From positions 20,956,001-21,020,000 of the forward strand of contig NC_135251.1 in the NCBI RefSeq assembly GCF_964204865.1: a DNA stretch of 64,000 nucleotides, in the 5' to 3' direction. This DNA comes from Styela clava (lineage: Eukaryota). This document shows, piece after piece, positions 42,550-62,126 of this stretch; position 1 is the first letter of the stretch, and the number at the start of each line of letters is the position of its first letter. The notes under the pieces were generated by a model. That model saw nothing but the letters and a program-made list of their open reading frames with translations, made no database searches and was not told the origin of the DNA. The position numbers were made by a program, and so were the translations under genes.

Positions 42550-45500
42550 TCACCCCAATAATACTTTGATTTTGTTGTTCATGAGCGACCAAAATATTGC
42601 CCTGAATTAAAGTAAAATACGGCTGCTGTTAACTACTGTCATATATATATATATACTAATTTTTGTCAAGGTTTATCATATATATGGAACGCTTAATCTT
42701 TTGACAGTCAATGCTTTTAAATTTCATATCATTGACGTATTTACCTGTGAGAAGGATTAATCACCTGGTAAATTTAATTTATTCATATTTATTCAAGAGA
42801 ACGTTGAGAGTGCTTTAAAAAAGACTAGTACTAACTCATTTTCCTTTGAAATAATGTTGTAGAATGTTCTTGTTTTGAATCCATTAAAACCACTCGAACA
42901 TGCAAAAGTGTAAGCTCCAGCATCTGTTTGACGAACAAAAAGAAAGTGAAGACTTTTTGTAAAAAAAAGCAATAATTTCATTCAGCAAACATTACCTTTC
43001 CAAAATAGCCAGTCATCGCAGTCCAATTTCGGCACAGATATTTTCTTAGCTAACGCCCGAGCATCGCAAGTTGGACCCCACAACCAAGCGTAATGGCGAT
43101 CCTTGTCTGCTTTTTCCTATAAGGTAAACTATAAACTAGGAAAAAATTTTGTCCAAAAAATAATTTTTAAAATTCTCCGAAATCGAAATGGAAAAATATC
43201 TAATTGTGTGGATGATATGATTTTCATTATTTAGTTTATAATTTCTATTATATATACATATATGCATATCAATTACCCCCGGAACATAAGGATTCATTTC
43301 TCCTGGTAAAGTATCATGCAAATACACCAGAGATCCATACAATCCTTCATTGATGATGTACTCAACATCCACGTTCGGTAGCTTTGTGTGCTCTGGAATA
43401 GATTGTAACATATATAGCAGATTGTATAAATTTACATGAATTCATTTTTACAATAAAATATTCAACTTTGTACATACACGCATCATAAAATCTGATAAAG
43501 TTGTTCCTAGTTTGGTGTTGAACCTTTTCCCCCTCTTTCGTAGAATCACTTACCCCGTTTCGTTATCACATTTGTTGCCAACACAAACGCGGTTGCTGCA
43601 TAATATCTTCCCGGCTCAGCGATAACCTCCAAATTTTTGTATATTTTAGAAGGAAACTCATTTTCTAAAGAGGCATTCACGGATGATGCTATCTGGAAAC
43701 AATTTGTACTTTATGAAAGTAAAAAGGCTGGGATAGTTCAGAAAGTAATATGTAGGAAAGTACAAAATATATAAAATATTTCGGAACATGATTCATATGT
43801 CAAAGTAGGCGTAAACGGGAATGTATCTGATGACAGAAAAAATGAATAACAAAACAACGAAACGATCGCATAGAGAAAATGAGGAAGTCCAGGAATAAAA
43901 AGAGAAGAAATATGAGTGCAAAGGCAGGAATATTAAGATAAATCAAAGTGATGAGAAACATTTAAATTTGTATACTTCCTCAATAGACAGTTTGGATCCT
44001 GGAAGTGCCGGAAACCCTCCTCCGATATCTAAAATGGTGAAATCCATTTCAAACGTCTTTCCGTAATCAAACAGTACTCTTGCGCGTTCGATTGTTTCCC
44101 TAAATGACTTGGCGTCCAGACATCCACTACCGACATGAAAACTGGAATGAAATAGTAATTTTAGTTATTCATTTTATGTAATTCTTTTACACACCTATTC
44201 ATAGATGTTTTAATTTTGAAATGATTCTCAGCAATCTGGAAAAAGGATTTCAAATCAAACTATGGATTAATGAAATCAAATTGACGAAGGTTTCGGTGAT
44301 TAAATGTTTCACTTTCTCATCTTCGTGGATTCGTCTTTAATCGTCATTTCACCTCACTTTCGATGGTGATACATAAAAATTATAAAAAACACCATTATTT
44401 TGATACCTTATTCCTATAATCTTCATATTAGTTAAGCTTGCAGTAGTGATTAGATGTTGAGACTCTTCAAAGGTTGCACCGAACTTGCCATCGAGAGGAA
44501 ACTCAGCTGTTGGATTGTCAACGCTTATTCGTAAAACCAATCTTGAAATAAAATAGTTTTAGATTTTTTTAGGTTTGATTGTTATGATTGTTTAGTCGAC
44601 AGACAAGAGAGAGTATGAAATATAAGCCAGTCCATCCACGGGTATGATATTGTCATTTTTTCTCCACCCGCAGAAGACAAAAAATATTCATGTGATATAG
44701 TTCTAGTTTTAAATTTCCTAAACTTGCATGACAGTATTTTTCATACATTTACAATAAAAAAAATATTTTATATCTTTTTGCATAAAACAGTAACAATTAC
44801 GGGGATCCATATCAAATATTTGAAACAAGACAAACAGCAGGAAAAATTCAGGATACTACAGCATGTGAATTCACTTAATAATATTTTCAAAATCAAATTA
44901 TCTCAGAATAGTAGTAATATTAAACCAAATATATTTTCTGGCAATCATCACCCGTGTTTTTCAGGTTTAAATTTTTTCTCTCATATTTGATTTCAACAAT
45001 TAAATCGGTCTATCTATCTTGTATGAAGAAAACGTTTGGATATACTGAACCGTAATTATGACTTTACCCAGCATTTTTAATTAAAGACAAATAAATAAAA
45101 AACGTAATTAAATTTAAGACCTACTCCGAATCTGGAAAATGTTTCTTGATCTTCTGAAGTTCTAGTTCACTGTCGAATACCAACATTTTCACTCCATTCT
45201 CTCTTGCATGAATAATATGTGAGACTGGTTTTGACGGGTTGGCAAAAATGATAGAATCTGGAGTTGATCCATTGTTTAATACCAAATCAATTTCTTCCTG
45301 AAATAAACTAATTTTAGTAGTCTAAATGATGCTAGTGTTTTTTACTTGGATGTTGTGTTGCGTGCGTTTTAGCAGCTTAGATAGGCCTATCGTTATACAT
45401 GATTATGTAGTTAGTAACAAGCCGCAAATACATTTGCTTTATACAACTTATATATTTTAAATGTTTATAAAGGTGTGAAACTAGAATTACTCATTTGCTT

Positions 45501-46096
45501 ACCTGACTAGCGCAATCAAATCCAGCACCTAATGCAGACAAACACCTAACCATTGGTGGATATGGAGCAACTTTCACTGCATAAAATGGACGCGAGGTGG
45601 GAAATAATTCCTGCCATCTTTTATGCTTTTTTGCAATATCGCCGAAGTCGCATATAAAGAAGCTGTCATCATAATTCTAGAAATAAACACTTCACAATAT
45701 GAAAATACACAATGTAACATATTATTGTATCGCATTTGAGGTTCTTTCACTACATGTACCATTCAGCATGAAACGTATCGCGCAGGTGAAACCAAGTGAA
45801 AATGTATAGTGAGATGTATATAGTGAGTCGGAATATACAACTTTCATTCAAATCGATTGTCGAATTCAAAACTTTCGGAAAAAATAAAAAACGTCAAATT
45901 CTCGATAGACACATAAAAATAAATGTGATTTTCTCGGAATTCGGAGTTGCAGTCAAATTTGGAGTCATATTCGCTTTTAGGCCAAGAGGAATTCAATACA
46001 AAAAAAATGTCGCCTCACCTTGCGACCTTCTGGAGAGTTTGAAATGGTAGTTGCCGCATCGTTCATCGTTATCCCTTCAATTACATCAATGCCGTC
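42550..46096 (-). CDS. ODC1-like: Ornithine decarboxylase-like (group IV PLP-dependent decarboxylase) paralog A; first exon and start codon uncertain
   Basis: Exons: 46096-46019, 45676-45503, 45297-45125, 44541-44407, 44141-43976, 43692-43554, 43392-43277, 43116-42996, 42923-42836, 42601-42550; in frame to TGA. Motifs PFYAVK, GFDCAS, IIFANPSK, VFDSELE, LVLRI, KFGA, SFHVGSG, LDIGGGFP, IAEPGRYY, WGPTCD, GAYT..FNGF. In-frame ATG at 46066. Confidence 0.93.
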
Positions 46097-47470
46097 CTGG
46101 AGAAAAAGTATGATGAGTATCAATACAAAACAAAATTTATATCTATATGATCAAATACGTATCCTCCCAGAGTAGAATATAATACCGAATTTGACGAATT
46201 CAGCAGTTCGCGATATTTTAAGCAAATTTTCCTTCAATAATTGCAAGCTGCTTGTCATAAAATATTGGCAGTTCAATCGAAACTAACTTGTTATAAAGTA
46301 TCAAGGATGTATGAAAAAGTGTTAAGGTTAGTTATGAATAGATTATACGTTGTCATATGACTGAATTTTATGTAGCGGGTTAGTGGCTGTCACGTAGGCA
46401 GCTGGTTCGATTGCTAGGTAAAATAATCACGACGTGTAGTGTCGTGATAAAACGCAGTACCTCTCCAGCCTTTCGAACAAGCACTATTTTTTAAATCTCA
46501 CCTTAGTGCCTATTTGAAACGTTGTGTATTTCGCCATTTCTAGTCTTGTAGAGTACAACAGATATCTAAATTCAAATACCCTAGAAAATCGCTTGTCTAT
46601 CCAACGGTCACTTCAGCCACCTTCCTGTATCATTATTAAGTAAACCTCATCATTGTTATTGGATTGCGTGGAACCCATGGTGTTATCGCAGTATCCTGCT
46701 GCGCAAATACCACTAAGTAAAACGCATAATTGTTGTCCCAATTTTCGTAACACGTCGTGATATCGTAGTACGCGCAAATATCAATATAGTTTGAAGAGTG
46801 TAAAAAAAACTAGATAACTTTAGATAGCCAACACTTTTCACAAGATAGTTGTTTGTTTTTTGTTATTGTGGAATTATCTCTTTTTTGCAAGCAATATACC
46901 AATCGATTACAAAATTCGCAATTTTTTTTCATTTTTTTCAAATTTGCTAGTTTTGAGTCTTATGGGACTTGAAGTTTCACCCAAAATTTTGCATTTATGT
47001 TTTAATTATATCTGTAATCTAAATATTGGGGGCTGTCTTTAGCATATTTTGGGATATGATTTATATGCTTCATCTGTCCAACGAATCAAATCCTAGAACT
47101 TGGGTCTGTTGTTGTTTATAACTGTTCAATCAAGTCATTTTCTTCCCGATATAGCCATGTGGCCGTCTAATTCGAATGCACTGATTTTCTAAAACGTTAA
47201 CGACATCCCTGACGTTATAGAAGCTGACCTAAATTTATCTCAGCCAAACCTTCAAATTTACCGATGTGTTTACTCAGTCATCTCGCCAACCTCATACCAC
47301 TTTAGATTCGGTAAGCTATGTACGGGGCATATTCTATGCGTTGGAGTGATTATGAGCTTTAACAAACTGATTGAAAGTGGTGCACAATTACGGCTGATAA
47401 AAACAGCAGTTGTTTGCTTGAAATTCAAAAAAACTTCTAAATACGCATTTTTGAATTTGTATAGCTTATG

Positions 47471-48344
47471 CAGGGGTGGCCAACCTGCTTTTGACCGCGA
47501 TCGACTAAAATATTCAAAATAGTCTGCAATCGACTGATCGGTAATAAGGTACTACACAAAAACAAATGGATACTGAATACGCAGATAACTGCACACACAC
47601 ATAGGAAAAACTTCACCACTGCCAATAACTCGGCTTTGTGGGCGCATTTTTAATGAAATCACAAAATTTGTATTTTATTGTTCCATTTAGGTTGTTAATT
47701 TGATTATTTAATTGTACCCGGAGTGAATGTTTCATTATTTATTTTATATTTATTCAAATCATACAATTCAGATACTGTCTATGGCCTGCCTAATTTTTAG
47801 ACGGAAGTGTTGAAAATTCCTCAAGAAACCTTGCCAAGTATTCATGTATTATCTGAATAGCGAAAAAAAATATTCTCAAATCATGAATGTTACACGACTG
47901 CTCAAACTTCAGTATCTAATTTACAATTTTCTCCAATTTGCTTAGAATTAGAACAAGTTGTCATGCCACAGCTACCATTGCGGATGAAATTTATCACACT
48001 ACTCTTGGAGTGAGACAATAACTTTTGCATAATGCGGAAGTTGTTGTAGGATCGTTTGTCAGTCTAGAGTAGACTCTAGACACGCGATATTTGGCACTTC
48101 ATTTTTAAATCTTGGCAGCGGAAAAACTTGCTTTTGTTACGTAATAATATGCTTTATAGTGATTGCCCAGACTTAAATACTGTATGTGTATATTGTATTT
48201 TGCGCATGTAAAGTGCTGTATTCTTCCTGTTGTAAACACACAACTGGTTCGAGGCAATTTTGGGGGGTATTTGAATAAAATTCACTCAACATCAGACGCG
48301 ATCGACTGCTCGAGTAGTGGCGATCTACGTGTTGGCCACCCCTG
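47471..48344. mobile_element. Longer member of the 37479-37999 hAT family
   Basis: Same TIRs and subterminal gcgatcgact motifs; flanks gcttatg / gcttatag. Confidence 0.88.
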
Positions 48345-49147
48345 GCTTATAGAATCAATCGTCGTCATTAAAAGTTATAAGAGCCCATGTCAGCTAAAGC
48401 TATTTAGCAAATGTTAATGTTCAGAACATCTTGTCTCAGCTAACCCTTCAGCTGTCCTTTTTACGTTCTGAAGTAAACGCAGGGGGTAAACTCAAATGTC
48501 ACTCAAATGTCATGACCAATATGTCTCTATATTTATCTAAACTTCATTTACATTTAAACAAAAAATCAACGCTGAAATATATCGCTACTATGGCCAAAAG
48601 AAAATATTTTACCCTCAATTTTCCGAAAATCTTTAAAACTTTATTCTGAAAGAAGCTGGTACTGTGGAACAGCTATGGTAACTTACCAGAACCTGTATCA
48701 GACATTAAGCAGGAGATCCACCGACTTTCGCTGAGCACGAGATCCGCTGGACTTAGATAGAAAAAAATATCCCGCTAAGTCCTGTGGAAGTTTTGAATTA
48801 AATAATAGTTATAGCCTTTTATCCAAAACAAAAATCTGTAACTACCTGATATTTTAAAGCAATGGGTGCAGTAAAACAACAAAAACATAATAACAAAACC
48901 ATCCGTAAGTACACTTCGTGAACTTGACTTGCTAAAACCAGTGCTTCCCAAACTTTTTGTGGATGTAAGACATTTGTGAAACACGGAAAATTTGTGACCC
49001 GCGAAAATTATATTTAACCAGTCTTATGATGTTTTGATTCAATGGTTTTAGGCATATTAAGCAGTGGAGTCTTAACCTGATGATTGAAGCAGAATGAATA
49101 AAGTATACGAAATTTGCTTAGCATGTGATGGATTATTCAGCCTAGGC

Positions 49148-49419
49148 CATGGGTTCTCAACCATGGCCCACTGCTGGTCCATAGAAACATTTTCAAGTAG
49201 GCCACAAACCTCTTAATAATAGCTAGAGTTGTTGAATTATTGGTTAAACTTTGATTGTAGCAGCAATGAATAATAATGCTGTCTTTAATTTTCATTCTAC
49301 AGTGTCTATTTTTTCCGAAAGTTTCTCGTAGTTTTTCTCAGGCATGAAAATGTTAATGAAACACCGAATTTTTATGTAATGAAAATGGGCCATGAAAGGG
49401 AAAAGGTTGAGAACCTCTG
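49148..49419. mobile_element. hAT-type MITE (same family as 1842-2105)
   Basis: TIRs catgggttctcaacc / ggttgagaacctctg; 8-bp TSD gcctaggc / tcctaggc. Confidence 0.82.
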
Positions 49420-50897
49420 TCCTAGGCCAATGGCGTACCGCGCATTTTCCCAGTGCGTCCATATATAGCTGTTCAGAGAAATAAGGAACAACAGACAAAA
49501 CAAATATGAACCTATTGGTTTTACTACTCAGATATTTTATGACTTTTATTTCTTTTATTAATGTTGTTGATAGATACTCTTTTCTCACCGAAAAAAAAAT
49601 GTACTATAATTGTGTATATGAAAGCAGGTAAGCTTAGTATCAGAATATATTTATTATACTATGAGAGAGATAAGTATTAGTTGTCTATAAACTATATAGA
49701 CATTTTGATGAAAAGACTGTTTCTCATTAATTTTTTATCTTGTGGTATTGGAGTCGATGCATAGGTCTTATCGCATGCTGATAATTCGATTTGACTTTTT
49801 AAACTAGGAGCTAACGATTCCAGTTGGAAATATTTTTGATTTATTTCAACAAACGATTTTGTGGTTATAATATTATTACACACGAAATGTACATAAACGC
49901 ATAAATTATCGTTTACTCGGAAACTGGGAAAGATGGGACAGTCGGTGTTAAGACCCGTATGTAACCAATGAAAAATAACCAGGCTAATCTTCCGTTGCCA
50001 ACACGCGAGTACATTGCTCAAGTATTGTAGCAACAAGATTGTGGTCTAACTGGTACACGGCAGGGTTGGTAACGTGCTATACATATACAGCCAAAAATAC
50101 GAATAAAAATATATAAATCCCTATTAACTTATATAAGGCCAACCAAAAATAAACATATACTGTACAGCCAATGATGTACATGCACAGGACAGCCAATGCA
50201 TTTTACATATGCTGCGGTTGCCTCCACGTGTTATGGTTATGGACATAACGACGCAAGTCAATTCAGACACATCTGTACATAAGGTTGCAATATAGGATGC
50301 CATAATGCCCCATAACAGCTGATCATTCATAACGCGAGGTATGTGCTGGCAACAACAACGACGATTGGAATTCCTTTTGAATTACTATTGTTCGACCCTT
50401 GGAGCTAAACTGGTGTCAAGCTAATCAAATTAAAGTTTAGTGCAAACTATTAATGCGTTATTTTTTGTTCGGTTCAAAATGCGTCGCCAGATTAGATATA
50501 TCTGTAGGATGAAGCTGAGTTTACTGACGAAATGCAGTAGAGATCTTTCGCTTACAGAAACCCAAAAAACAAGTGTATAGTAGATGCAATAAATTACTAT
50601 GATTAAAGTTCCATTCAACGGTAAGCTTCCACATTTTATTTGCGCATAGTAATACATATAGATGCAGCTGCTCGTAGTGCATGAATATACACGCATTAAT
50701 ATGAAAGTAGCCTACTTGAATACGTACGTTTAATTTCAAATCTTGAATGTCATAATGCCTCACAGTAGATGCTCGCTAATACCACGAGATATGGTGTTGG
50801 TAACGGTGACCGTGCATTTGAACCCACGTTCATTTGAACCCATGTGTATATCCGCGGGTTCAATCTATATGTGGATGCTAAAACCCATGGCTTAGAC

Positions 50898-53185
50898 CAG
50901 GGGTTCTCAAACTTTTGGTGTTGCGGAGCCCTTGAAAAGATTAACTATTATTCACGGAGCCCCAAATAAAATGTTAAAATTGTTACTTTTCTATTAATAT
51001 TCCTGAGTAAAATTAAAAGTACTTTACTTAATTTGAATGCTAAACCTTTTTTAATAGGGTTAATACAAGTCATAAATAAATCTAAATTTCAAAGATAAAT
51101 TATGTATACTAAAACTGTAAATTTGACACTTGATAAACATATTAATAAATTATGGACCGAATCTTTACCCTTTCGACATTTTCAGAAGACTTACAAAGCC
51201 GCTGATAACGTGCGCGAATGTATTTTGTTACATTCGCCGATGGTTCTCCTCAGCATGGCATGTTTTTAACATCTTTACGTCGGTGTTTATTCTCCATAAA
51301 TCAAAAATTTCCGTCGGCACGTACATGTATTGTTTCACAATGACGACGATAATTGCTTTTTTGTTCTCGTGGGGAATTATGAGTTCAATGTGAAAAACAT
51401 GTTACCATATCGTCACGCTAATAACCGAATTGCGTAAGTCATTTTTGGCGATTTTGAGTTTTTTTTTATATAATAGGTATTTATGTGATGCTGCGCACCT
51501 GTCTGTTAACTCAGATTTTATATTAAGAATTCCGAAACCCATAAAAATGATGATTTAGTATGACATGCACATTTGTGCAATTGTTTCCTCATAATGAATT
51601 ATCATTGTTACCGCAGGACTATTTTGACGTCACGAAGGCAAAATAACCTCGGCGAAGTATTTACGAGTTTTTGCATCTCGGATTCTAGCTTAGCGCGTAT
51701 TAATTTGAATTTATACTACAGTATAGGAAGGCGTGCACTTGTGATATTCACTGTCCGAGTCCAATTCACCTTGGTTGGCTCTTATATTGGGTGCATTGCT
51801 GTTTTATTCTTTATATTCAATCTTAGTCTTTTTTCGGTGGGGTGTGCGGAACGTGTTATATTGATGAAATATATATTTTTAAACATAAAAAATATTGAAA
51901 TTAAAACTGATTAGCTATTTTGGGGATTAGACATTGTAGATACTGAGAATTACATTCGTTTTTGGAATGTTTAGTTTTCAGGACTGGTGCATATAGTAAA
52001 GTTGCAAAATTGCGTATGTGCCCAAGTCATAAACACATTTCTGCCTAAGTTACAGTGCGCCTTTATGACGTCACTTAACTGCGTCATACAAATTAACTTA
52101 ATCCGGCTTCTTTATTAAATTATTTTTAGCGTTTTGTCGCCGATGACTATAATATCATCACGCTAATAACCGAATTGCGTAAGTCATTTTTAGCAGTTTT
52201 GAGAAAAACGTAAAAAACCTCCTAATGATATTGTTATGCCATTGAGAGTCAATAATTTGCCATGGTTCAATTTTTTGATCGAGGTAAATTCGAAACTCAA
52301 ATTTCTTGATTGAAAAACGATATTCTGAAATAATAAAACTTAAAATGAAAGATCACACTATAAATTTTATTTCAGCAGTCTCACGTGAGATCAAAAACGC
52401 TTTTATATAGGCATTGGAAATCACAAAATTTGGTGTTATGTTAGGTTTTCTCTGGTGATTCATCGTAGTAACTGCGAAATCGTAACACAGTCAATTGTGC
52501 GCGCGATGTACCTTTTTTTCATTCTGAAACCACCGACGGAGCCGCATGCAATAAATTAATTTCAATCGTTCGTATTTTGCCGAGACCTTGTGATTTTTTA
52601 AACGGCGATTAAAATATCAATTATTATCTTGCTTAAAAATAATCTCGAGTGCAAAAGAACAAATGAAGTTTGACAAATCCCAAGATCGCAAAAATACGAC
52701 TCCAATTTATTTATAGTTGGCAGTTTATCACGTATTTTATGTTATTTTAGAATAGTAATCCTAATAGTAATCTCGAATCAAACGTGAGTAACGACGAGCA
52801 CAATTATATTATTAGAACAAGACACTTTAATTAAATGCTCGCATCGGTCATGGATTGAATATTTTACGCAACAGAAATCTCGCAATCCGTTTTTTTTTAA
52901 ATCGCGAAGAATGTCGCGCGGAAGTTTCCGATTCCATTCCCACCCCCTCCTCAGAAGTCTGGCTGCGCTCCAGCTTATAAATAATTTCATTTTTTAATTT
53001 CGCCTCTTTGCCATATTTCAAGGCTATATATTGTTTCAGATATTATCAAAGCTGTTATTGCTTCTTTGAACTGTTACAAAATTAGTCAAGTCAGTATTTT
53101 GAAAAGTAATCGAATAACTCGCGGAGCCCCTGGGTTTCTCTCGCGGAGCCCTGGGGCTCCGTACGGAGCACTTTGAGAACCTATG
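50898..53185. mobile_element. Non-autonomous hAT transposon nested in the MITE
   Basis: TIRs caggggttctcaaa / tttgagaacctatg; perfect 8-bp TSD gcttagac; subterminal gcggagccc repeats. Confidence 0.92.
51409..52281. mobile_element. Rearranged copy of the 816-bp TIR element, nested in the hAT
   Basis: About 51409-52107 is the reverse complement of 14383-13697; about 52156-52281 is a forward copy of 13568-13694. Confidence 0.88.
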
Positions 53186-54423
53186 GCTTAGACTAGGGTT
53201 GGTATGAGTTCAAATATCCGTAAAACAAAAAAATTTCCATAGGTGCAATAGTATGTAGGTGCAATTGTCGCGGGTTCAAATATACGTGGGTTCGAATGTC
53301 ATGGAACTGTTGGTAACGACGGCGAAATTAGAACTTCTCCTGAATATAGTCTAATATTTAGGCATTGCAATTGAACCGAGAAAAAAACTAACCAAGTTTT
53401 ATACAGACCATTATTACTCAAGTTGCATTTTATTATAAGTAGTTCGCGGCGGCTGACTGTGTATGTACCAGGGCTGTGGAGTCGGAGTCCAATTTGACAA
53501 GGTTGCTCTTGAGTAGAACTTTCTGCAGTCGGAATTTCATACTTTTATTGTTGATAACAAATGTCATCTTGTAAATCTGTCAAATGTAAATCTTTTTTTT
53601 TCAGAAAATTAAGGCGTAATCCATACCGTCACTGTGAATATGGCATGGCATGTTTGTGAACTGCATGTGTTAAACTCCCTAGCACAGGGTTTCTTAAAAT
53701 AACCCCCGGTGTTCCTGGGTCATTTTGACACCCCTCTAAAAAAAATTTAATATTTCACCAACCAAAAATGCCAAAAACATCATTAATGTGTCCTTGAAAA
53801 GCTTATTTTCGTCGCTTTCCGCTAAAATGCGCCCAAATTACGTAGCACAAATGTGTACGGCCGTACGCCGGTAAGAAGAGAGAAATTTTGAAAAAATTTC
53901 GAAAAAAAGTTTTCTCACTTTTAACGCTGTGGTCGACACGTGATTGATATGCGAGAGAAAGAGTTCTCTTTTAGAAGAGCTTTACGTCACCTTCAAAATA
54001 AAACAAGAGTGGGATTTGTAAGTGAAGTGATATTCGTTTTATCGAAGAGCATTTGATCGCGTGCTGTCTGGTATCTTTGTTTGTTTATTATGAGCCGAAG
54101 AACGTTGCTCGCGCGTTCAAAATACTCCGTTTTCAACTAACAACAGATTCCTTGTTTATTTTTAAGCTTTGAAATACTCATACAAATATAATTGACCTTG
54201 TTGCAAAATAAAAATTATACATAAAAAAATATGATGACGTCACCGTAATTAAGAACACTCGGATCAAGCATGGATGATTTAAACTCAAACATTTTGAGTT
54301 TTGAAATTGGTTTTGTTCACATGCAGACCACTATGAAATACTTGACCCCTCAAAATACATTTAATTTAGCCATAATCCCAAATTATGACACAGGGTACCC
54401 CTTTATGACCAGGCCGATCCTAT

Positions 54424-54495
54424 CGGGTTTTAACCTAGGTTCGATCGAACCCCTGGGGTTCGGTGAAGCTATTCCAGGGGTTCGACGAAGGTCCT
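54424..54495 (+). mobile_element. hAT/Charlie-like terminal fragment
   Basis: ttttaacctaggttcgatcgaacccctggggttcgg...caggggttcg resembles hAT subterminal repeats. Confidence 0.5.
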
Positions 54496-55066
54496 CTGAA
54501 ACAGGTATATTTAATAAAGACTTTATATAACACAGCATACTAATCAAACAAAAATAACAATAGATCATCGAAGACATAAAATTTTACACGTTTAAACAAC
54601 TCGTAAATTAGCTGTGTGTAGCTTCGCGCAGATAAAAGTTCTAGTCGAAATTTCAAATACTTTTACAGCTTGAATTCCAGCACACTTCATAACAAACTTA
54701 TATCGACACAGATATCGTACGCTTTAGCATTTTCAGATTCTTTTCGCTTATGAGCACAAAACATCTTAGGTTATAATGACAAACGTTGGGGTTTTAAGCA
54801 AATTTTGCGCGTGTGAAACCTTATTCATATGCTACTAATAAATTATAGCTCAGTATAGCAAGTGGGTGTATATAAATTGATATAAAATCAAGACGTGTTT
54901 AAAAATTTGTGGCGAAGAATATTTTATTGAAGAGCTTTTCTTAAAAATCTGGACGAGCTCAATATAACGCTAAGTCATAAGGTTGACCGTGTCTATTTCG
55001 GCAAAACAGCCGACAAACTCTTTTATCTGCATTCGAATGCAATTTGAAGTTTTAGAAACGGATGAC

Positions 55067-55334
55067 TGGATCAACTCCCGATTCTATCATTTTTGCCAAC
55101 CCGTCAAAACCACTCTCACATATTATTCATGAAAGAGAGAATGAAGTAAAAATGTTGGTATTCGACAGTGAAGTATAACTCCAGAATATCAAGAAACATT
55201 TCCCAGATTCAGAGTGTGTTCCACATTTTTATTTTATCTTTTTATTATAATAAAAAATCGGGTATCAATGCTATAAAAACAGAAAGAGTTATAAAGAAAG
55301 ATATGTAAAAAAAAATTGGAACCTGGCGAGAACA
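55067..55334 (+). pseudogene. ODC-like pseudo-exon 4 plus the start of intron 4 (relic of a third ODC copy)
   Basis: Translates as GSTPDSIIFANPSKPLSHIIHERENEVKMLVFDSEV*LQNIKKHFPDS, with TAA at 55176-55178 where intact copies have GAA. It has no 5' acceptor. The following sequence (gtgtgttccacattttt...gagaaca) matches ODC-B intron 4. Confidence 0.92.
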
Positions 55335-57024
55335 TGATGGTATGCACTTTTTAAATCCAATTTCGTTGATTAGATCACTCATATTCGGTAATGGAATATA
55401 ACGCGTTTAACTGAGTAAATATATTGGTCGTCTGTGAATAATCGATTACAAACATTTGTTTCCCATTTTCACCCTTCACGACGACAACTTGAGCTCTCCA
55501 CGGAGATCTGCCAGACGCTACAATTCCTTCCTGTAACAAACGGTTGACCTTAATTTCAATAAACATTGTCATCTTTGGAATACTAATGAGACATTGTAGC
55601 AATAGTCAGCAGCAGCAGCAGCAGATCGCAGTCAGCAGTTAGATTTTTGAATGGTTCTGATGACAAACTTTTGAAAGTTGAGAAGCCACTTACAGACATT
55701 GGAAGTCGATCGCCGCGGTAAACATAAGTTACACTTTGATGCTGTCCTTGAAGGTCTATTCCAAGTAAAATGTCACAACATAAATTATCCATTACCCTTA
55801 ATATGAATTTTGGATAGCGTCGGCCCTGATATTCAATATCTGCTGCTGTACAACCTTTTAGTTAGAGGAATGGAATAGGCCAGAGAAGCCATTGCTACCT
55901 TGTCCTTAACTGTGTGTCCCTTTTGATTGGGAGGTTACACCTTTCTATGAGACGAGGGTGTATGAAACTCTGGCTACTGCAACTATAAAAAAGTGCACGT
56001 ACTTTGTGTCTTTCAATACGAATCACAGGAGAACCTCTCAATAATTTTGGGCTGTGATTTTTGATATGCAGTGACTTCGTCAGGTTTTTGTGGGTTGAAA
56101 ACTGCTTCTATGCAGACTTTTATGAAACGTCCCCTTTTATGACACTTGAAACAAAACACATTTCGGGCTGGACATTTTAACGATGATGTTTCTTTCCGCA
56201 CAGAAAAAGCAAGTAGAATTTGCAGTAGCAGATATTTTCTCGATATCACACGATGACTTATTGAATGGAGTTTCACTGTTTTGAGCTGACACAGTAGAAG
56301 AAAGATCGGATACTCGATAAGCTTCAGTGTTCTTAATTGCTATTTCTAAGCTCCTGGCTCGATCGAATGTCGTATTAAATTAAGATGTTTGTTTTCCAAC
56401 GAGCGCGGCCGTATCCATGTGGAGTTTAATCCCCGGATAAAAGCGTCTCGGACATAAGCATCTCGATTTTGAACAGCAAATACAGTTTTGAAATTACAAT
56501 GTTGCTTAACAATTTCAATGCTTGCATGTATTCGCCTACATTTTCAGATGCTTGTTGGTTCCTGGTTGCCAGAACATGCCGAGAATTAACTTCATTGCGG
56601 GGTTTGACAACATTGTTTTCAGAATCTCAATCACAGTATCGTATGATTCTGTCTCTTCAATATATTGGAATATACGAGGAAATATGAAATTCACCAATAC
56701 ACCTAGTTTATGCGTTACGGCGTTCAGAAAATTATCGAAAGTCTTCTTCCAGTGAAGCCACTCACAGGATGCTTCATGAGAGTTAGGATCTACCTCTAGT
56801 CTCTCAGGTTTCAGAACCTTGTCCATGCTTATACCAGAATACTCTTGTGAAATGCGATAAGTTGAATAAATTGTAATGAATGATAAATGTAGTACCTTGA
56901 TATAAGGCTTTCTTTATTCAGCCTAAATCTGAAGCACACTTGGAATGAATCTAAAGTAAAATATAACACAAGTAAATGTTATTAAACAAGAAAACAAATA
57001 CGTAGCGAATTGCTGATTCTAACA
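55335..57024 (-). mobile_element. Decayed Ty3/Gypsy LTR retrotransposon (5' LTR, gag, protease, N-terminal RT; 3'-truncated)
   Basis: Gag starts MDKVLKPERLEVDPNS at 56826. Degenerate zinc knuckle CFKCHKRGRFIKVC; protease remnants (CDILLGID); RT motifs SPWRAQVVVVK, VIDYSQT and LDLKSAYH ending at 55335. Several stops and frameshifts. A TG...CA-bounded segment at 56872-57024 is the putative short LTR. Confidence 0.88.
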
Positions 57025-58306
57025 GTAAGCGGCCCCATAGTTGAATAAATAAAAATGGAAGAACTACATTACATCTACACTACATCTACAGCACAGCAAT
57101 AACTGATGTCTGATTTAAAACGCTTCAGCAATCATCGCTAGACTGCAGCTGTATAAACGAATAGATTCATTAAGTTACATTTACAAGGTATTACAACATG
57201 TTATGGGAATAACGACGCAAGTCAATTCTGAGACATCTGTACATAAGGTTGCAATATAGGATGCCATAATGCCCCATAACAGCTGATCGTTCCTAACGCG
57301 AAGTATGTGCTGGCAACAACGACGACGATGGACCTTTCCCCGACCTTTGACCCCCGAAAAATTCTTCCTATACTTTCCATTGCAAAATGTTCGGGGCTTA
57401 TTTCAAGAGTTGTTTCGCGACATGGCGCCTGTAAAATGGGGTATGTGTTTTAAACCATCATTATGATTCATCGCATGTAACAATCTGTTTTTAAAAGTAC
57501 CGGTAAAGAATTTCAGCCCAGTCTATTACAGCTATTTCTAAACTCTTTTTTATTTCTGCAATTAAATTGAAACTCCTAAGAAGACAGAGTGATCATTGAA
57601 TTATCTGATTTATATTTAAATTTCCGAAACACAACGGAAAACTAACAAATAGAGTTCAAAAACGCAAAAACTAGGTAATGTTTACGACCGCGCCTGGAAA
57701 TCTGTCTGAGTGAGAAAAGTGTCTGAACGGATGCGAAAAGGAAGCATTGTTTGTTCAATTCAAAACGCGTCGCCAGATCATATTTGTAGGATGAAGCTGA
57801 GTTTAATGACGAAATGCAGTAGAAATCTTTCGCTTACAGAAACTCCAAGAACGATTTTAAGGTTGAAATATGAACAACGATTCCAAACAAGTGTATAGTA
57901 GATGTAATAAATTACTATGATTTAAGTTCTATTCAACGGTAAGCTTTTACATGTAATTTGCGCATAGTAATACATACAGATGTAGCTACTCGTAGTGCAT
58001 GAATACGTACTTATTAATTTGAAATCTTGGATGTCATAAGGCCTCACAGAAGATGCTCGCTCATACCACGAGATATGGTGTTGTTATCAACGACGAAACT
58101 GGAACCTCTATTGAATATAGCCTATTATTTAGGCATTGCAATTGAAGTGGAAACAAACTAATCAAGTTAAAGTTTAATACAGACCATCACGTTGTATTTT
58201 TTAGAATATAGATGCATATTTTTGCAATTCTTTCTTATTTTATGACCCAATTTTTTCAGCTTAGTTGAATTTTAGTAACTGTGCCTATTTCCAAGACATC
58301 AAAATC

Positions 58307-61300
58307 ATGGAGTGTTCGACGTTCTGTATAGGTACAAAGGTACGATTTTATTCATAAAAGAAAAGTTCGTAATAACTCGGTCCGGGTTGCAGCGGTAGTC
58401 AATCTCTGTGATCTTATTTATTACACTTTAGAAACTCTATCTTAAAGTACGGCTACAAGTTAATAATATTTATTTATTTAAATGTATAATTATCCTTTTT
58501 GTATCGTTACTCATCACATTTTCTGCAGGACAACATTGATGTATTTGAAGGAATAACAATGAACGAAGCGGCAAAATTCATTTCAAGTTTTCCTGCAGGT
58601 CGCAAGGTAAGGTGGCAACACTGTTGTATTGTATTCCCACGGAAAAACGTAATAATTGTAAAGCTTGCAAATTAATCGCAGACAGTAGTTAATGATGATA
58701 TTTGAAACAGAATACAACACTATTATCAAAATCGCTCGAGCTCTGTAGATGTTTCCATTCAATTCTCAAGTGATTAATCAAATTGAAGTAATTGGTTTTG
58801 CGCTATGTTATTGATATGCATGCTTTTGCGGGTATTTGATTGAAGCTGTTTGATTCATAATTAACTACTCAATAATAGGGCCAGTTCTTATAGATTATTT
58901 CAATATCTCAATATCGTACCTGAGAAGGCATGAAAGATTTTGAAAAAAAAAATCAGAAAAAGGCCACTGCAAGCTTGGTTATTTAAAGTTTGCGTTCTTG
59001 GAAGCTTACAATTAATAATCTTAGCAGAAATATATATCTTACATATTTCATTTTATAATTTTGTGAAATATTCCTCGTTCAGAATTTTGACGACAGTTTC
59101 TATATATGCGATTTCGGAGATTTTGCAAAGAAGCACAAACGATGGCGGGAGTTATCTCCCAATTCTCGTCCGTTTTACGCAGTGAAAGTTGCTCCATATC
59201 CACCAATGATTAGATGTTTGTCTGCAATGGGCACTGGATTTGATTGCGCCAGTCAGGTGAATAAAATTAAATTCTAATCGCACACATGTATATACAATGG
59301 AAAGGTTCGAAAATTGCCTATCAAAACGGTAAATTCGAACGTGGTTAGAATTTTGATACTTTACTCTTCACGAGAAATCAGAATTGGGATAAAACCTCCT
59401 TATCCGACAATAAGATGACAGGAAAGGTAATTATGACTTTTTAAAGTTTATATATTCACTTTATTATCTTAATTTTATTTCGTAAGGAAGAAATTGATTT
59501 GGTATTAAACAATGGATCAACTCCGGATTCTATCATTTTTGCCAACCCGTCAAAACCTGTCTCACATATTATTCATGCAAGAGAGAATGGAGTGAAAATG
59601 TTGGTATTCGACAGTGAACTAGAACTTCAGAAGATCAAGAAACATTTTCCAGATTCAAAGTGTGTTCCACATTTTTATTTTACCTTTTTATTATAATAAA
59701 AAAAAAACGGGTTGAAAGATAGGTAAAAAAAAAATGAAATCCGGGGAGAACAGAACTATATCAATAACGAGATTTTTCTTATAACTCATCATGATGTAAC
59801 TAATTTGTAAAAAAAAAGTTCACGAGATAGGTATATGGATATTTTAATTGACGCAGCTCAATATCCTTGCGTGCGTATTTAAAATAAAACATCTAATATC
59901 TATGGATCTTTCATTTCAAGGTTGGTTTTACGAATGAGCGTTGACAATCCAGTGGCAGAGTTTCCTCTAGACGGCAAGTATGGTGCAACATTGGAAGAGT
60001 CCCGACATCTGATCAATATTGCAAACTTAGAGGACATGAAGATAATAGGAATAAGGTGCAACTATTAAAATTATTGAAATGAACTTCTATACCTGGTCAA
60101 CATGGGAATTCAGACAAAATTTCGCCTTTAACAAGATCCTTATATGTAGATCAATGTCATTTATTGCTTGTATTGTAACTCATAAAACTTTAAAAAGATT
60201 GATTACACATTAAAGATTCACATGCTTTATAAAAGTAAAATTAATTAATTAGAGACAAAGAACTGTAATGGAAAAAACACATTTTCATTAATTCCCTGAT
60301 TTTAAAAGTTTGCTTTATACGTTAGAATAAATTATACAAACGTTTATTATTTTTGGTTAGTTTTTTGGGTACGGTGTTCCGCTGATTCTATGAGTTACTG
60401 CCAATCAACAAGATAATATAATTAAAACATCTCTAATCTTGTAAATAAATTTTTCGGATGATTGTTTCATTCCAGCTTTCATGTTGGTAGTGGATGCCTT
60501 GATGCCAATTCATTTAAGGAAACAATTGAACACGCAAGGGAACTGTTTGATTACGGAAGAACACTAGGAATGGATTTCGATATTTTAGATATTGGAGGAG
60601 GCTTCCCTGCACTTTCGGGATCCGCTCTATCAATCGAGAAAGTATACAAATTTATTGTTACTTTCACCGCTTTATTCGTATATTTCTCTTTCCTTCTTCC
60701 TGTTGGCTTATTTCAGCTAACTCCATTTTAACGGTGTACTTTTTTCTGATTATTTGGTTCCTGCGAGACTAACTACTTATCCTTCTTCTATGCTTTTGTG
60801 CCGGTGGATCCGTATGCATGCAAGGATGCTGTAGCATAAGTAGAGATAACAATCCTAAGTGATTCAAGAGTCTTGCTGCACACTAACAGAAATAGATTTG
60901 TGTTAGTCTGCAGCAAGACTCTTAAATCACTTAGTACTTTTCTCTTGTCCTGTATCATTTCCTTTGCCAGGCTCATTGCCTACCTTTTTTCAATCCTATG
61001 TTGACATTTGGATAATATTTCCATATGTATTGCTTTTTATTTGTACTCTCGTCCTTATTGTTCTTTGTGTCATATCTACAACTCCTCATTTTTGAACGTA
61101 AAGTACAATTGTTTACAGATAGCGTCAACCGTGAATGCCTCTTTGGAAATGAATTTTCCCGCTGAAATATTTGATAAATTGCGTGTTATCGCGGAGCCAG
61201 GACGATATTATGCAGCAACAGCGTTTGTTTTGGCAACAAAGGTGATAACTAAACGAGGTAAGTGATTATATAATACAATCTAAAGGTTCAAAACTGAATG

Positions 61301-62126
61301 TTTATAGAATTCCCCATAGCATTTAGGTCATATTTATCAGATTTGTTAGGGATATACTGTTGTAATGTGATTTCATTTTGAATCAATCCAATCTGTTTCA
61401 TATATGTTATAATCAATTTTAGAGCACTCAAAACTGCCTAATGTGGATGTTGAATATACTCTAAACGAAGGAAAGCACGGATCTCTGCAGCTTTCTTATG
61501 GGACTCTACCGGGAGAGATGATTCCTTATGTTCCGGAGGTATCACAACGATATCTTGATAAAGACATTATCCTTACAATTAACAGATTCAGTTCTCGACT
61601 GCCGAGTACAAATATGTCACTATTCTTTTTATTGGTTAAATAATGGTTTTTGCATTATAGGAAAAAGCAAATAAGAATCGCCATTATGCTTGGCTCTGGG
61701 GTCCGACTTGCGATAACAAGGCGTTATCTAAGAGAATATTGGTGCCAAAATTACACATCGACGACTGGCTGTTTTGGAAAGGTAATATTTACTGCCCGAA
61801 ATCAAATTTGTCCAATATGACAATTCTTGACAAAAAGTCTATAATATGAATATCCATTTCTTTGTCAAACAGATGCTGGGGCTTACACTTTTGCATGTTC
61901 TACTGGATTTAACGGATTTAAAACAACGGCATTTTATAATATTATTTCAACAGAAAATGAGTTAGTAACTATTTTATTTTAAAATGACTTTTATGGTCAA
62001 ATTATTCTATTTAAAAAAAATAAAATTAATCAAAGATTAATTTATGTACAAATTATTTTACTTCGATTCAGAGCAATATTTTGGTCTCTCATGAATAATA
62101 AAGTCGAAGTAATATTGGAACGATGA
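58307..62126 (+). CDS. ODC1-like: Ornithine decarboxylase-like paralog B, 11 exons, about 425 aa
   Basis: Exons: 58307-58339, 58529-58606, 59083-59256, 59487-59659, 59921-60055, 60476-60641, 61119-61257, 61423-61538, 61661-61781, 61873-61960, 62072-62126. All GT-AG and open to TGA. Same ODC motifs and intron phases as paralog A. Confidence 0.95.
60746..60934 (-). mobile_element. Shorter copy of the PLE-like foldback element, without the hammerhead
   Basis: Near-identical to 32612-32770 plus a short inverted arm. Flanked by tactttttt / tacttttct. Confidence 0.8.

Follow-up and report, generated by a model that had tools for sequence, protein, structure and literature searches.

Two ornithine decarboxylase-like genes, here called A and B, are arranged divergently within a 64,000-nucleotide stretch of the genome of the ascidian Styela clava (NCBI RefSeq assembly GCF_964204865.1, contig NC_135251.1, positions 20,956,001 to 21,020,000 of the forward strand), referred to below as the window. 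The reading favoured here, with roughly even confidence, is that both encode active pyridoxal 5'-phosphate (PLP) decarboxylases, which would have arisen through the duplication of a tunicate ornithine decarboxylase (ODC) and would act on non-ornithine substrates that probably differ between the two proteins. By residues D332 and D364, A and B appear not to be ODC, by the signature residues of the antizyme inhibitors (AZINs) they appear not to be AZIN, and they do not appear to be orthologs of the mouse leucine decarboxylase LDC1.

A preliminary description of this DNA had proposed that the substrates are probably not ornithine and that they differ between the copies. The first proposal fits the evidence: a canonical ODC1 is present elsewhere in the genome, most of the ornithine-contact positions lie in or next to altered segments, and the pocket evolves faster than the core of the protein. 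The second would depend on differences at 11 of the 31 pocket positions, and on a helix register that varies with the aligner used.

Catalytic and cofactor-binding residues

Residues are numbered as in human or mammalian ODC1, with a 461-amino-acid mammalian ODC1 (P0100) as the mapping reference, and the list of 18 essential ODC residues is that tabulated in PMC5574924; statements taken from papers cited by PMC number refer to the parts of those papers that were available. All of the residues named in the preliminary description (K69, D88, R154, K169, H197, E274, R277, C360, D361, and Y389) are found in both A and B, and each protein retains 17 of the 18 essential residues, the missing one being D364. 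At the level of the sequence, the PLP lysine, the phosphate loop GGG, the EPGR motif, H197, Y389, and the catalytic cysteine are all in place, as is D361 beside C360, which is characteristic of ornithine decarboxylase.

The PLP lysine, K69, is Lys73 in A (codon 45572..45574, minus strand) and Lys72 in B (codon 59185..59187, plus strand), and is followed in both copies by Val-Ala instead of Cys-Asn, as had been described. In a comparison set of 347 relatives, which was collected by similarity and contains much vertebrate ODC1, so that its rows are not independent, KVA is found in none, while 304 have the "CN" of the KCN type.

Rewritten segments of the pocket

Enzymes of this fold choose their substrate through the 3-10 specificity helix and the Cys loop, which present acidic residues to basic substrates and basic ones to carboxylates (PMC7857480). 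The ornithine contacts of ODC are Y323, Y331, D332, C360, and D361 (PMC3543441), and four of these five positions are in, or adjoin, the altered segments of A and B.

The canonical element YGSFNCxxYDH, which includes D332, is rewritten in both genes, and the two sequences previously described were found at the same exons. Exon 8 of A (43277..43392, minus strand) has YGSLVYLHDTL, with a single acidic residue (Asp327) of uncertain register, and exon 8 of B (61423..61538, plus strand) has the acid-free HGSLQLSYGTL, with Lys317 and His318 at the positions of V322 and Y323. The residues F326, N327, and H333, which are invariant in 20 canonical ODCs, are replaced in A and B, where the helix region is also one residue longer than in ODC. 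In the AlphaFold monomer of A, residues 321-340 score 73-83, and the stretch contains no called helix as long as four residues.

The Cys loop lies in exon 9, which encodes Cys356 (43068-43066), Asp357, and Arg359 in A (42996..43116, minus strand), and Cys355 (61709-61711), Asp356, and Lys358 in B (61661..61781, plus strand). A one-residue deletion accompanies the loss of D364 in both genes, and the spacing between C360 and W380 is 20, versus 21 in 227 of 244 relatives. For the motifs CDARA (A) and CDNKA (B), the preliminary description was right on the loss of D364 and the gain of a basic residue, which the shorter loop may place at either 363 or 364. Lysine or arginine three residues after the cysteine is found in only one of 321 relatives. 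The K169-D364 intersubunit pair is thus broken on one side, with K169 kept and D364 lost. The deletion is common to A, B, two further Styela copies (C6a and C6b), and XP_039268185, a protein from another assembly, and all five proteins of the A/B subclade have the basic residue after the cysteine, with variable neighbours.

Residues 158-168 form what we take to be the lid loop, and this segment is changed in both genes (C164F, R165P, and S167D), a feature absent from the preliminary description. The changes lie in exon 5 of A (44407..44541, minus strand), together with R154 and K169, and in exon 5 of B (59921..60055, plus strand). Of 22 relatives with an aromatic residue at 164, 20 have a non-canonical helix, versus 26 of 216 with Cys164. 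An acid at 167/168 is found in four of the five subclade proteins, versus 12 of 337 relatives, and these 12, where they could be parsed, still have D364.

Selection and probable gene conversion

The pocket segments were defined as residues 158-168, 322-333, and 361-368 in the human numbering (31 sites). In 10 of 10 subclade pairs, which are not independent, these segments differ by 35-61%, versus 15-22% in the core, a rate 2-3.5 times faster, whereas of 13 pairs of canonical ODCs, 12 have a lower divergence in the pocket than in the core and one has equal values. Of all the signs that the pocket may no longer be constrained for ornithine, this inversion is the strongest. It is also seen in two pairs of fish paralogs.

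Over exons 3-10, A and B have 0.104 nonsynonymous (dN) and 0.554 synonymous (dS) substitutions per site, a dN/dS ratio of 0.19, and all six pairs compared range from 0.19 to 0.30. Both genes are under purifying selection. Exon 4, which holds the antizyme-binding element (human 117-140), is nearly identical in A (45125..45297, minus strand) and B (59487..59659, plus strand), with differences at 4 of 173 nucleotides versus 14-26% in the other exons, and a proportion of synonymous differences (pS) of 0.08 versus 0.34-0.54. Because the flanking introns have diverged, this near-identity points to gene conversion, which is likely to have occurred between the two copies of the exon.

Gene models, identity, and expression

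Gene A (42550..46537, minus strand) and gene B (58307..62126, plus strand) were modelled from the window with 11 coding exons and 425 amino acids each. The span of 42996..61781 given in the preliminary description points to both genes, but their true ends lie outside it. Exons 1-6 of A are at 46537-46502, 46096-46019, 45676-45503, 45297-45125, 44541-44407, and 44141-43976, and exons 7-11 at 43692-43554, 43392-43277, 43116-42996, 42923-42836, and 42601-42550. Exons 1-6 of B are at 58307-58339, 58529-58606, 59083-59256, 59487-59659, 59921-60055, and 60476-60641, and exons 7-11 at 61119-61257, 61423-61538, 61661-61781, 61873-61960, and 62072-62126. The introns are GT-AG, with matching phases in the two genes, and the frames are open. 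The products are identical to P0001 (XP_039260187.2) in the case of A, and P0284 (XP_039260186.2) in the case of B, both labelled ornithine decarboxylase-like, Styela clava, in the database.

The two proteins are 80% identical to one another, 42-43% identical to the mammalian and Styela ODC1, and about 40-43% identical to eukaryotic ODC1 in general. Both PF02784 and PF00278 are above the cut-off in each protein, and the AlphaFold monomer of A, with a predicted local distance difference test (pLDDT) score of 94.9, has human ODC as its top fold match in Foldseek, with a template modelling (TM) score of 0.86. The PLP barrel and C-terminal sheet domain are those of the ODC subfamily of the fold-type III group IV decarboxylases. 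Both proteins end at 425 amino acids, without the C-terminal degron tail of ODC.

Contigs from three runs of three studies include, among the joints listed for them, six at introns of A (with CT..AC ends), and a fourth, genome-like run has no A joint among those listed. None of the runs is on record as RNA; the RNA nature of runs X1, X3, and X6 is a guess of the tool used, and their contigs are thus referred to as transcript-like.

The wider family in Styela clava

That the pair is part of a larger family, with at least 14 divergent copies, was missed in the preliminary description. The genome searches, in which exons were chained on 20 fetched stretches and the window, give lower bounds. One canonical ODC1, with KCN, YGSFNCLFYDH, and CDGLD, is found on C19 of the genome, and the divergent genes with open exons 3-10 are A, B, two on C6, one on C4, six on C17, two on C13, and one on C8. 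The model of C6a lacks exon 2, which was not recovered by exon chaining. Two pairs of C17 genes are almost identical, which may reflect very recent duplication or a duplication introduced by the assembly. Gene fragments occur at four places besides these copies. Partial ODC-like fragments were noted at G000:C6:5595600-5597800, C6:2500300-2501300, and C17:8167000-8167200, and the window itself contains an isolated and disrupted copy covering most of exon 4 (55068..55220, plus strand), with an in-frame stop and a downstream flank that resembles intron 4 of B.

The C4 copy (G000:C4:10042000-10048000, L050), annotated as "antizyme inhibitor 2-like", is sister to the A/B subclade and keeps C360, D361, and D364, with the changes D88E and K169R, which makes it a useful intermediate. 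Nine genes (G000:C17:8115000-8160000, L031-L036; C13:8218000-8236000; C8:21465000-21472000) retain K69, H197, E274, and Y389, and lack C360, D361, and R277; these copies are stranger than A and B. The six C17 copies alternate in orientation, and C17 copies 2-5 (four of the six models) have a GC rather than a GT donor at exon 3.

A tree of 24 rows, seven from the Styela clade and 17 others, picked from an alignment of 53, joins the divergent genes and P0142 in one clade (100/99) within a tunicate group (95/92). The cysteine C360 is kept in all seven proteins of the branch formed by A/B, C4, and P0142, and is lost in the sister branch of nine genes. By the approximately unbiased (AU) test, two candidate sisters of the clade are neither rejected nor supported, these being the Clavelina "AZIN2-like" protein (p-AU 0.36), and the Styela ODC1 with its two nearest relatives (p-AU 0.35); P0142 and the Clavelina protein both form long branches. 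Among the best 150 matches from 1.84 billion representatives, P0142, which has no close relatives, is the only recognised member of the clade from outside Styela. It is approximately 40% identical, and the matches of over 50% identity are all Styela clava proteins.

Some other proteins (P0019, P0021, P0150, P0318, P0327, and P0309), labelled "ODC-like" in fish and "AZIN2-like" in Clavelina, keep their catalytic residues and have non-canonical specificity elements. They are independent candidates for new substrates.

Proposed mechanism and alternative readings

If A and B are enzymes, each would form a homodimer in which Lys73 (A) or Lys72 (B) holds the PLP. By analogy with the chemistry of ODC, the alpha-amino group of the substrate would displace this lysine, CO2 would leave, and Cys356/355 of the partner subunit would protonate the intermediate, releasing the amine. 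Since Asp357 and perhaps an acid in the helix are retained in A, the substrate of A may carry a distal amine on a different scaffold, with a side chain that differs in size or bears an additional group. B, which has lost the helix acid and gained Lys317 and His318, may accept side chains that are neutral or acidic. The Arg/Lys gained after the cysteine would pair with the lid acid (167/168), replacing the K169-D364 bridge, or, alternatively, would bind an anion of the substrate, as Lys347 does in the bacterial enzyme SbnH.

In a bolder and rather improbable extension of this scheme, the whole ascidian clade would be a diversifying toolkit, in which the Arg/Lys of the A/B subclade grips a second anionic group. 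These would be the first animal enzymes of the ODC fold to use amino acids that are acidic, acylated, or sulfur-bearing, with a different amine made by each copy, and the nine Cys-less copies, with their PLP lysine, would be PLP- or ligand-binding partners with roles of their own.

A number of observations weigh against active enzymes with new substrates. The description of the pair as catalytically intact was sound for the residues named, but is weaker than stated, given the loss of D364 and N71 in both proteins, V322K in B, and an E274A allele of B. D364 is present in 321 of 321 parsed relatives from outside Styela (26 of the 347 were not parsed), and in human ODC the mutations K169A and V322D leave negligible activity (PMC4139326), B having a lysine at 322. 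Another allele of B has E274A, and another allele of C6a has C360L, which could be either natural losses or assembly errors. The essential residues are not kept significantly more often than other invariant ODC positions (17/18 vs 53/64, p 0.20; 17/18 vs 52/64, p 0.16). Positive selection in the pocket is not supported, with pocket dN/dS values of 0.3-1.2. The pocket inversion also appears in all three pairs of copies without C360, D361, and R277, and the Cys-less copies have dN/dS ratios of 0.18-0.29 (seven pairs), so that neither signal is specific to catalysis, and the inversion does not distinguish a new specificity from a loss of catalysis. None of the splice joints listed belongs to B, in runs that were picked with gene A, so that the low cover of B carries no weight; one X3 contig piece begins exactly at the acceptor of B exon 11 (62072), which is a weak hint of splicing. 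Finally, the mouse LDC1, unlike A and B, keeps the equivalents of D332 and D364, and, as it switched substrate with both in place, the sequence does not read out the substrate.

The alternative that survives best, although it is considered unlikely, is that A and B are catalytically dead, or nearly so, and function as antizyme-inhibitor-like decoys or as subunits that heterodimerise with ODC1, the pocket having drifted because no substrate is bound. The absence of D364 and N71, with V322K and no D332 in B, would suit such proteins, as would the nine sister genes, which have lost C360 yet evolve under purifying selection, and inactive ODC homologs are reported to have arisen more than once (PMC5574924, citing Ivanov 2010). 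The exon of the antizyme-binding element has the lowest proportion of nonsynonymous differences (pN) in four of six pairs, but its pS is likewise low in the A/B pairs, which makes conversion a likelier cause than selection. The genome has a single antizyme-domain match (G000:C18:5079986-5080246, L051), but only one of seven human antizyme contacts is kept in A/B, the same as in the Styela ODC1, so that no gain is visible. Inactive regulators also fit poorly with the retention of K69, C360, D361, R277, Y389, H197, and E274, and with the absence from A/B of the AZIN1 signature residues S277, D389, K125, and K140.

A second alternative, somewhat more doubtful, is that at least A is a decarboxylase of a basic amino acid (ornithine, lysine, or arginine), a stable, degron-free isoenzyme for the production of polyamines or of cadaverine or agmatine. 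A keeps Y323 and D361, and HMMER aligns Asp327 with D332, using gaps, so that a D332-like acid may be retained in A, although MAFFT and a pairwise aligner disagree. An acid at the same place is found in C4 and XP_039268185, but the elements of B, C6a, and C6b are acid-free. Entamoeba ODC tolerates four pocket changes, and decarboxylates ornithine despite Y323H, D332E, and D361N (PMC3543441), which is a further point against new substrates in A and B. The Xenopus ODC2 is a lysine/ornithine decarboxylase (PMC6738921), but has its canonical residue set intact, whereas A has replacements at F326, N327, and H333, and a shortened Cys loop with a basic residue.

That the copies are decaying members of a birth-and-death family with no current function is highly improbable, for although gene fragments at four places, the damaging-looking alleles E274A and C360L, and the absence of a full match to XP_039268185 among the loci fetched from this genome would agree with it, the reading is largely refuted by the dN/dS of 0.19, with open frames and canonical splice sites maintained over a dS of 0.55, and by the spliced, transcript-like contigs of A in three studies.

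Other features of the window

Positions 1-41000 of the window contain several dipeptidyl peptidase IV-like genes in both orientations, which look like a tandem array, and three of the four open frames tested match DPPIV_N. Broken open frames at 55375-56913 (minus strand), none of the four tested matching Pfam, look by eye like a retroelement, with stretches similar to a zinc knuckle and a reverse transcriptase. High-copy repeats are found at 47000-48400, 50400-54300, and 57000-58300, and in intron 6 of B, near 60800-60950; in the genome-like run their depth exceeds that of single-copy sequence by a factor of thousands. A similar stretch occurs at about 50124-50381 and 57181-57402.

Significance and comparison with known systems

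A new substrate has been proven, to our knowledge, for few ODC paralogs of eukaryotes, namely the mouse leucine decarboxylase, the Spartina S-methylmethionine (SMM) decarboxylase, and the lysine/ornithine enzymes. With at least 14 copies and differing pockets in a single genome, the Styela family is a natural panel for the study of how the ODC fold changes its specificity, and it would allow a test of whether the divergent ODC homologs of invertebrates are inactive regulators, as usually assumed, or enzymes whose substrates have yet to be recognised. Work on it would further reveal if an enzyme of this kind can do without D364, invariant elsewhere, and might lead to amines so far overlooked in ascidians. 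The annotation of these genes as "ornithine decarboxylase-like" would mislead the reconstruction of pathways. No paper on this Styela or ascidian family was found in the literature covered; subscription journals and the supplements of genome papers, which lie outside that coverage, may mention it.

A and B share with eukaryotic ODC1 (EC 4.1.1.17; PF02784 and PF00278) the fold, both domains, and 17 of the 18 essential residues. They differ from it in having KVA for KCN, FP for CR in the lid, a rewritten specificity element, the loss of D364 with a deletion, a shortened acidic loop at 298-310, and no C-terminal tail.

Divergent ODC paralogs are a known, recurrent pattern in animals. ODC homologs with altered key residues occur in planarians (ODC2-6), mosquitoes, Ciona, and amphioxus (PMC5574924, citing Ivanov 2010), and, as with the AZINs and these invertebrate paralogs, the Styela genome has extra homologs beside one canonical gene, the C17, C13, and C8 copies being the best fit. 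AZIN1 lacks R277 and Y389 (PMC6313458), its residues S277, S331, E332, and D389 representing the loss of PLP and dimer residues, and its K125 and K140 raise the affinity for antizyme (PMC5518511). Unlike AZIN1 and AZIN2, A and B keep K69, C360, R277, and Y389, with alterations at 331/332 in an uncertain register, and have Glu and Gln at 125 and 140.

The basic residue of the Cys loop has a counterpart in SbnH and FigC, the bacterial citryl-amino-acid decarboxylases. In FigC, His357 stands three residues past the catalytic Cys354, and in SbnH, Lys347 at this place binds the substrate carboxylate (PMC7857480). A and B have Arg or Lys three residues past the cysteine, an equivalence based on position in the sequence. 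They are remote from these enzymes (E about 1e-23, versus 1e-181 for ODC), and keep the Asp next to the cysteine, which is replaced in FigC.

SaSDC of Spartina anglica is an S-methylmethionine decarboxylase derived from ODC, reportedly through few substitutions and with no substantial indels (PMC11464771). Compared by description only, this plant enzyme resembles A and B in being ODC-derived with a new substrate, which in A and B is predicted. In the mouse, Gm853 (ODCrp, LDC1) decarboxylates leucine rather than ornithine with all of the ODC residues kept (PMC6313458, PMC7671201, PMC5518511). The koala protein P0394, a putative LDC1 ortholog by its CDAFD and RE motifs, has the same FPL lid as A and B. 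The grouping of the Styela clade, P0394 (standing in for the mouse LDC1), and two fish ODC-like proteins in a single clade was rejected (p-AU 3.6e-5), so that the likeness of A and B to P0394 would be convergent. The mouse leucine decarboxylase and the Spartina S-methylmethionine decarboxylase, each a descendant of ODC that took up a new substrate, thus appear on the best reading to be the parallels of A and B.

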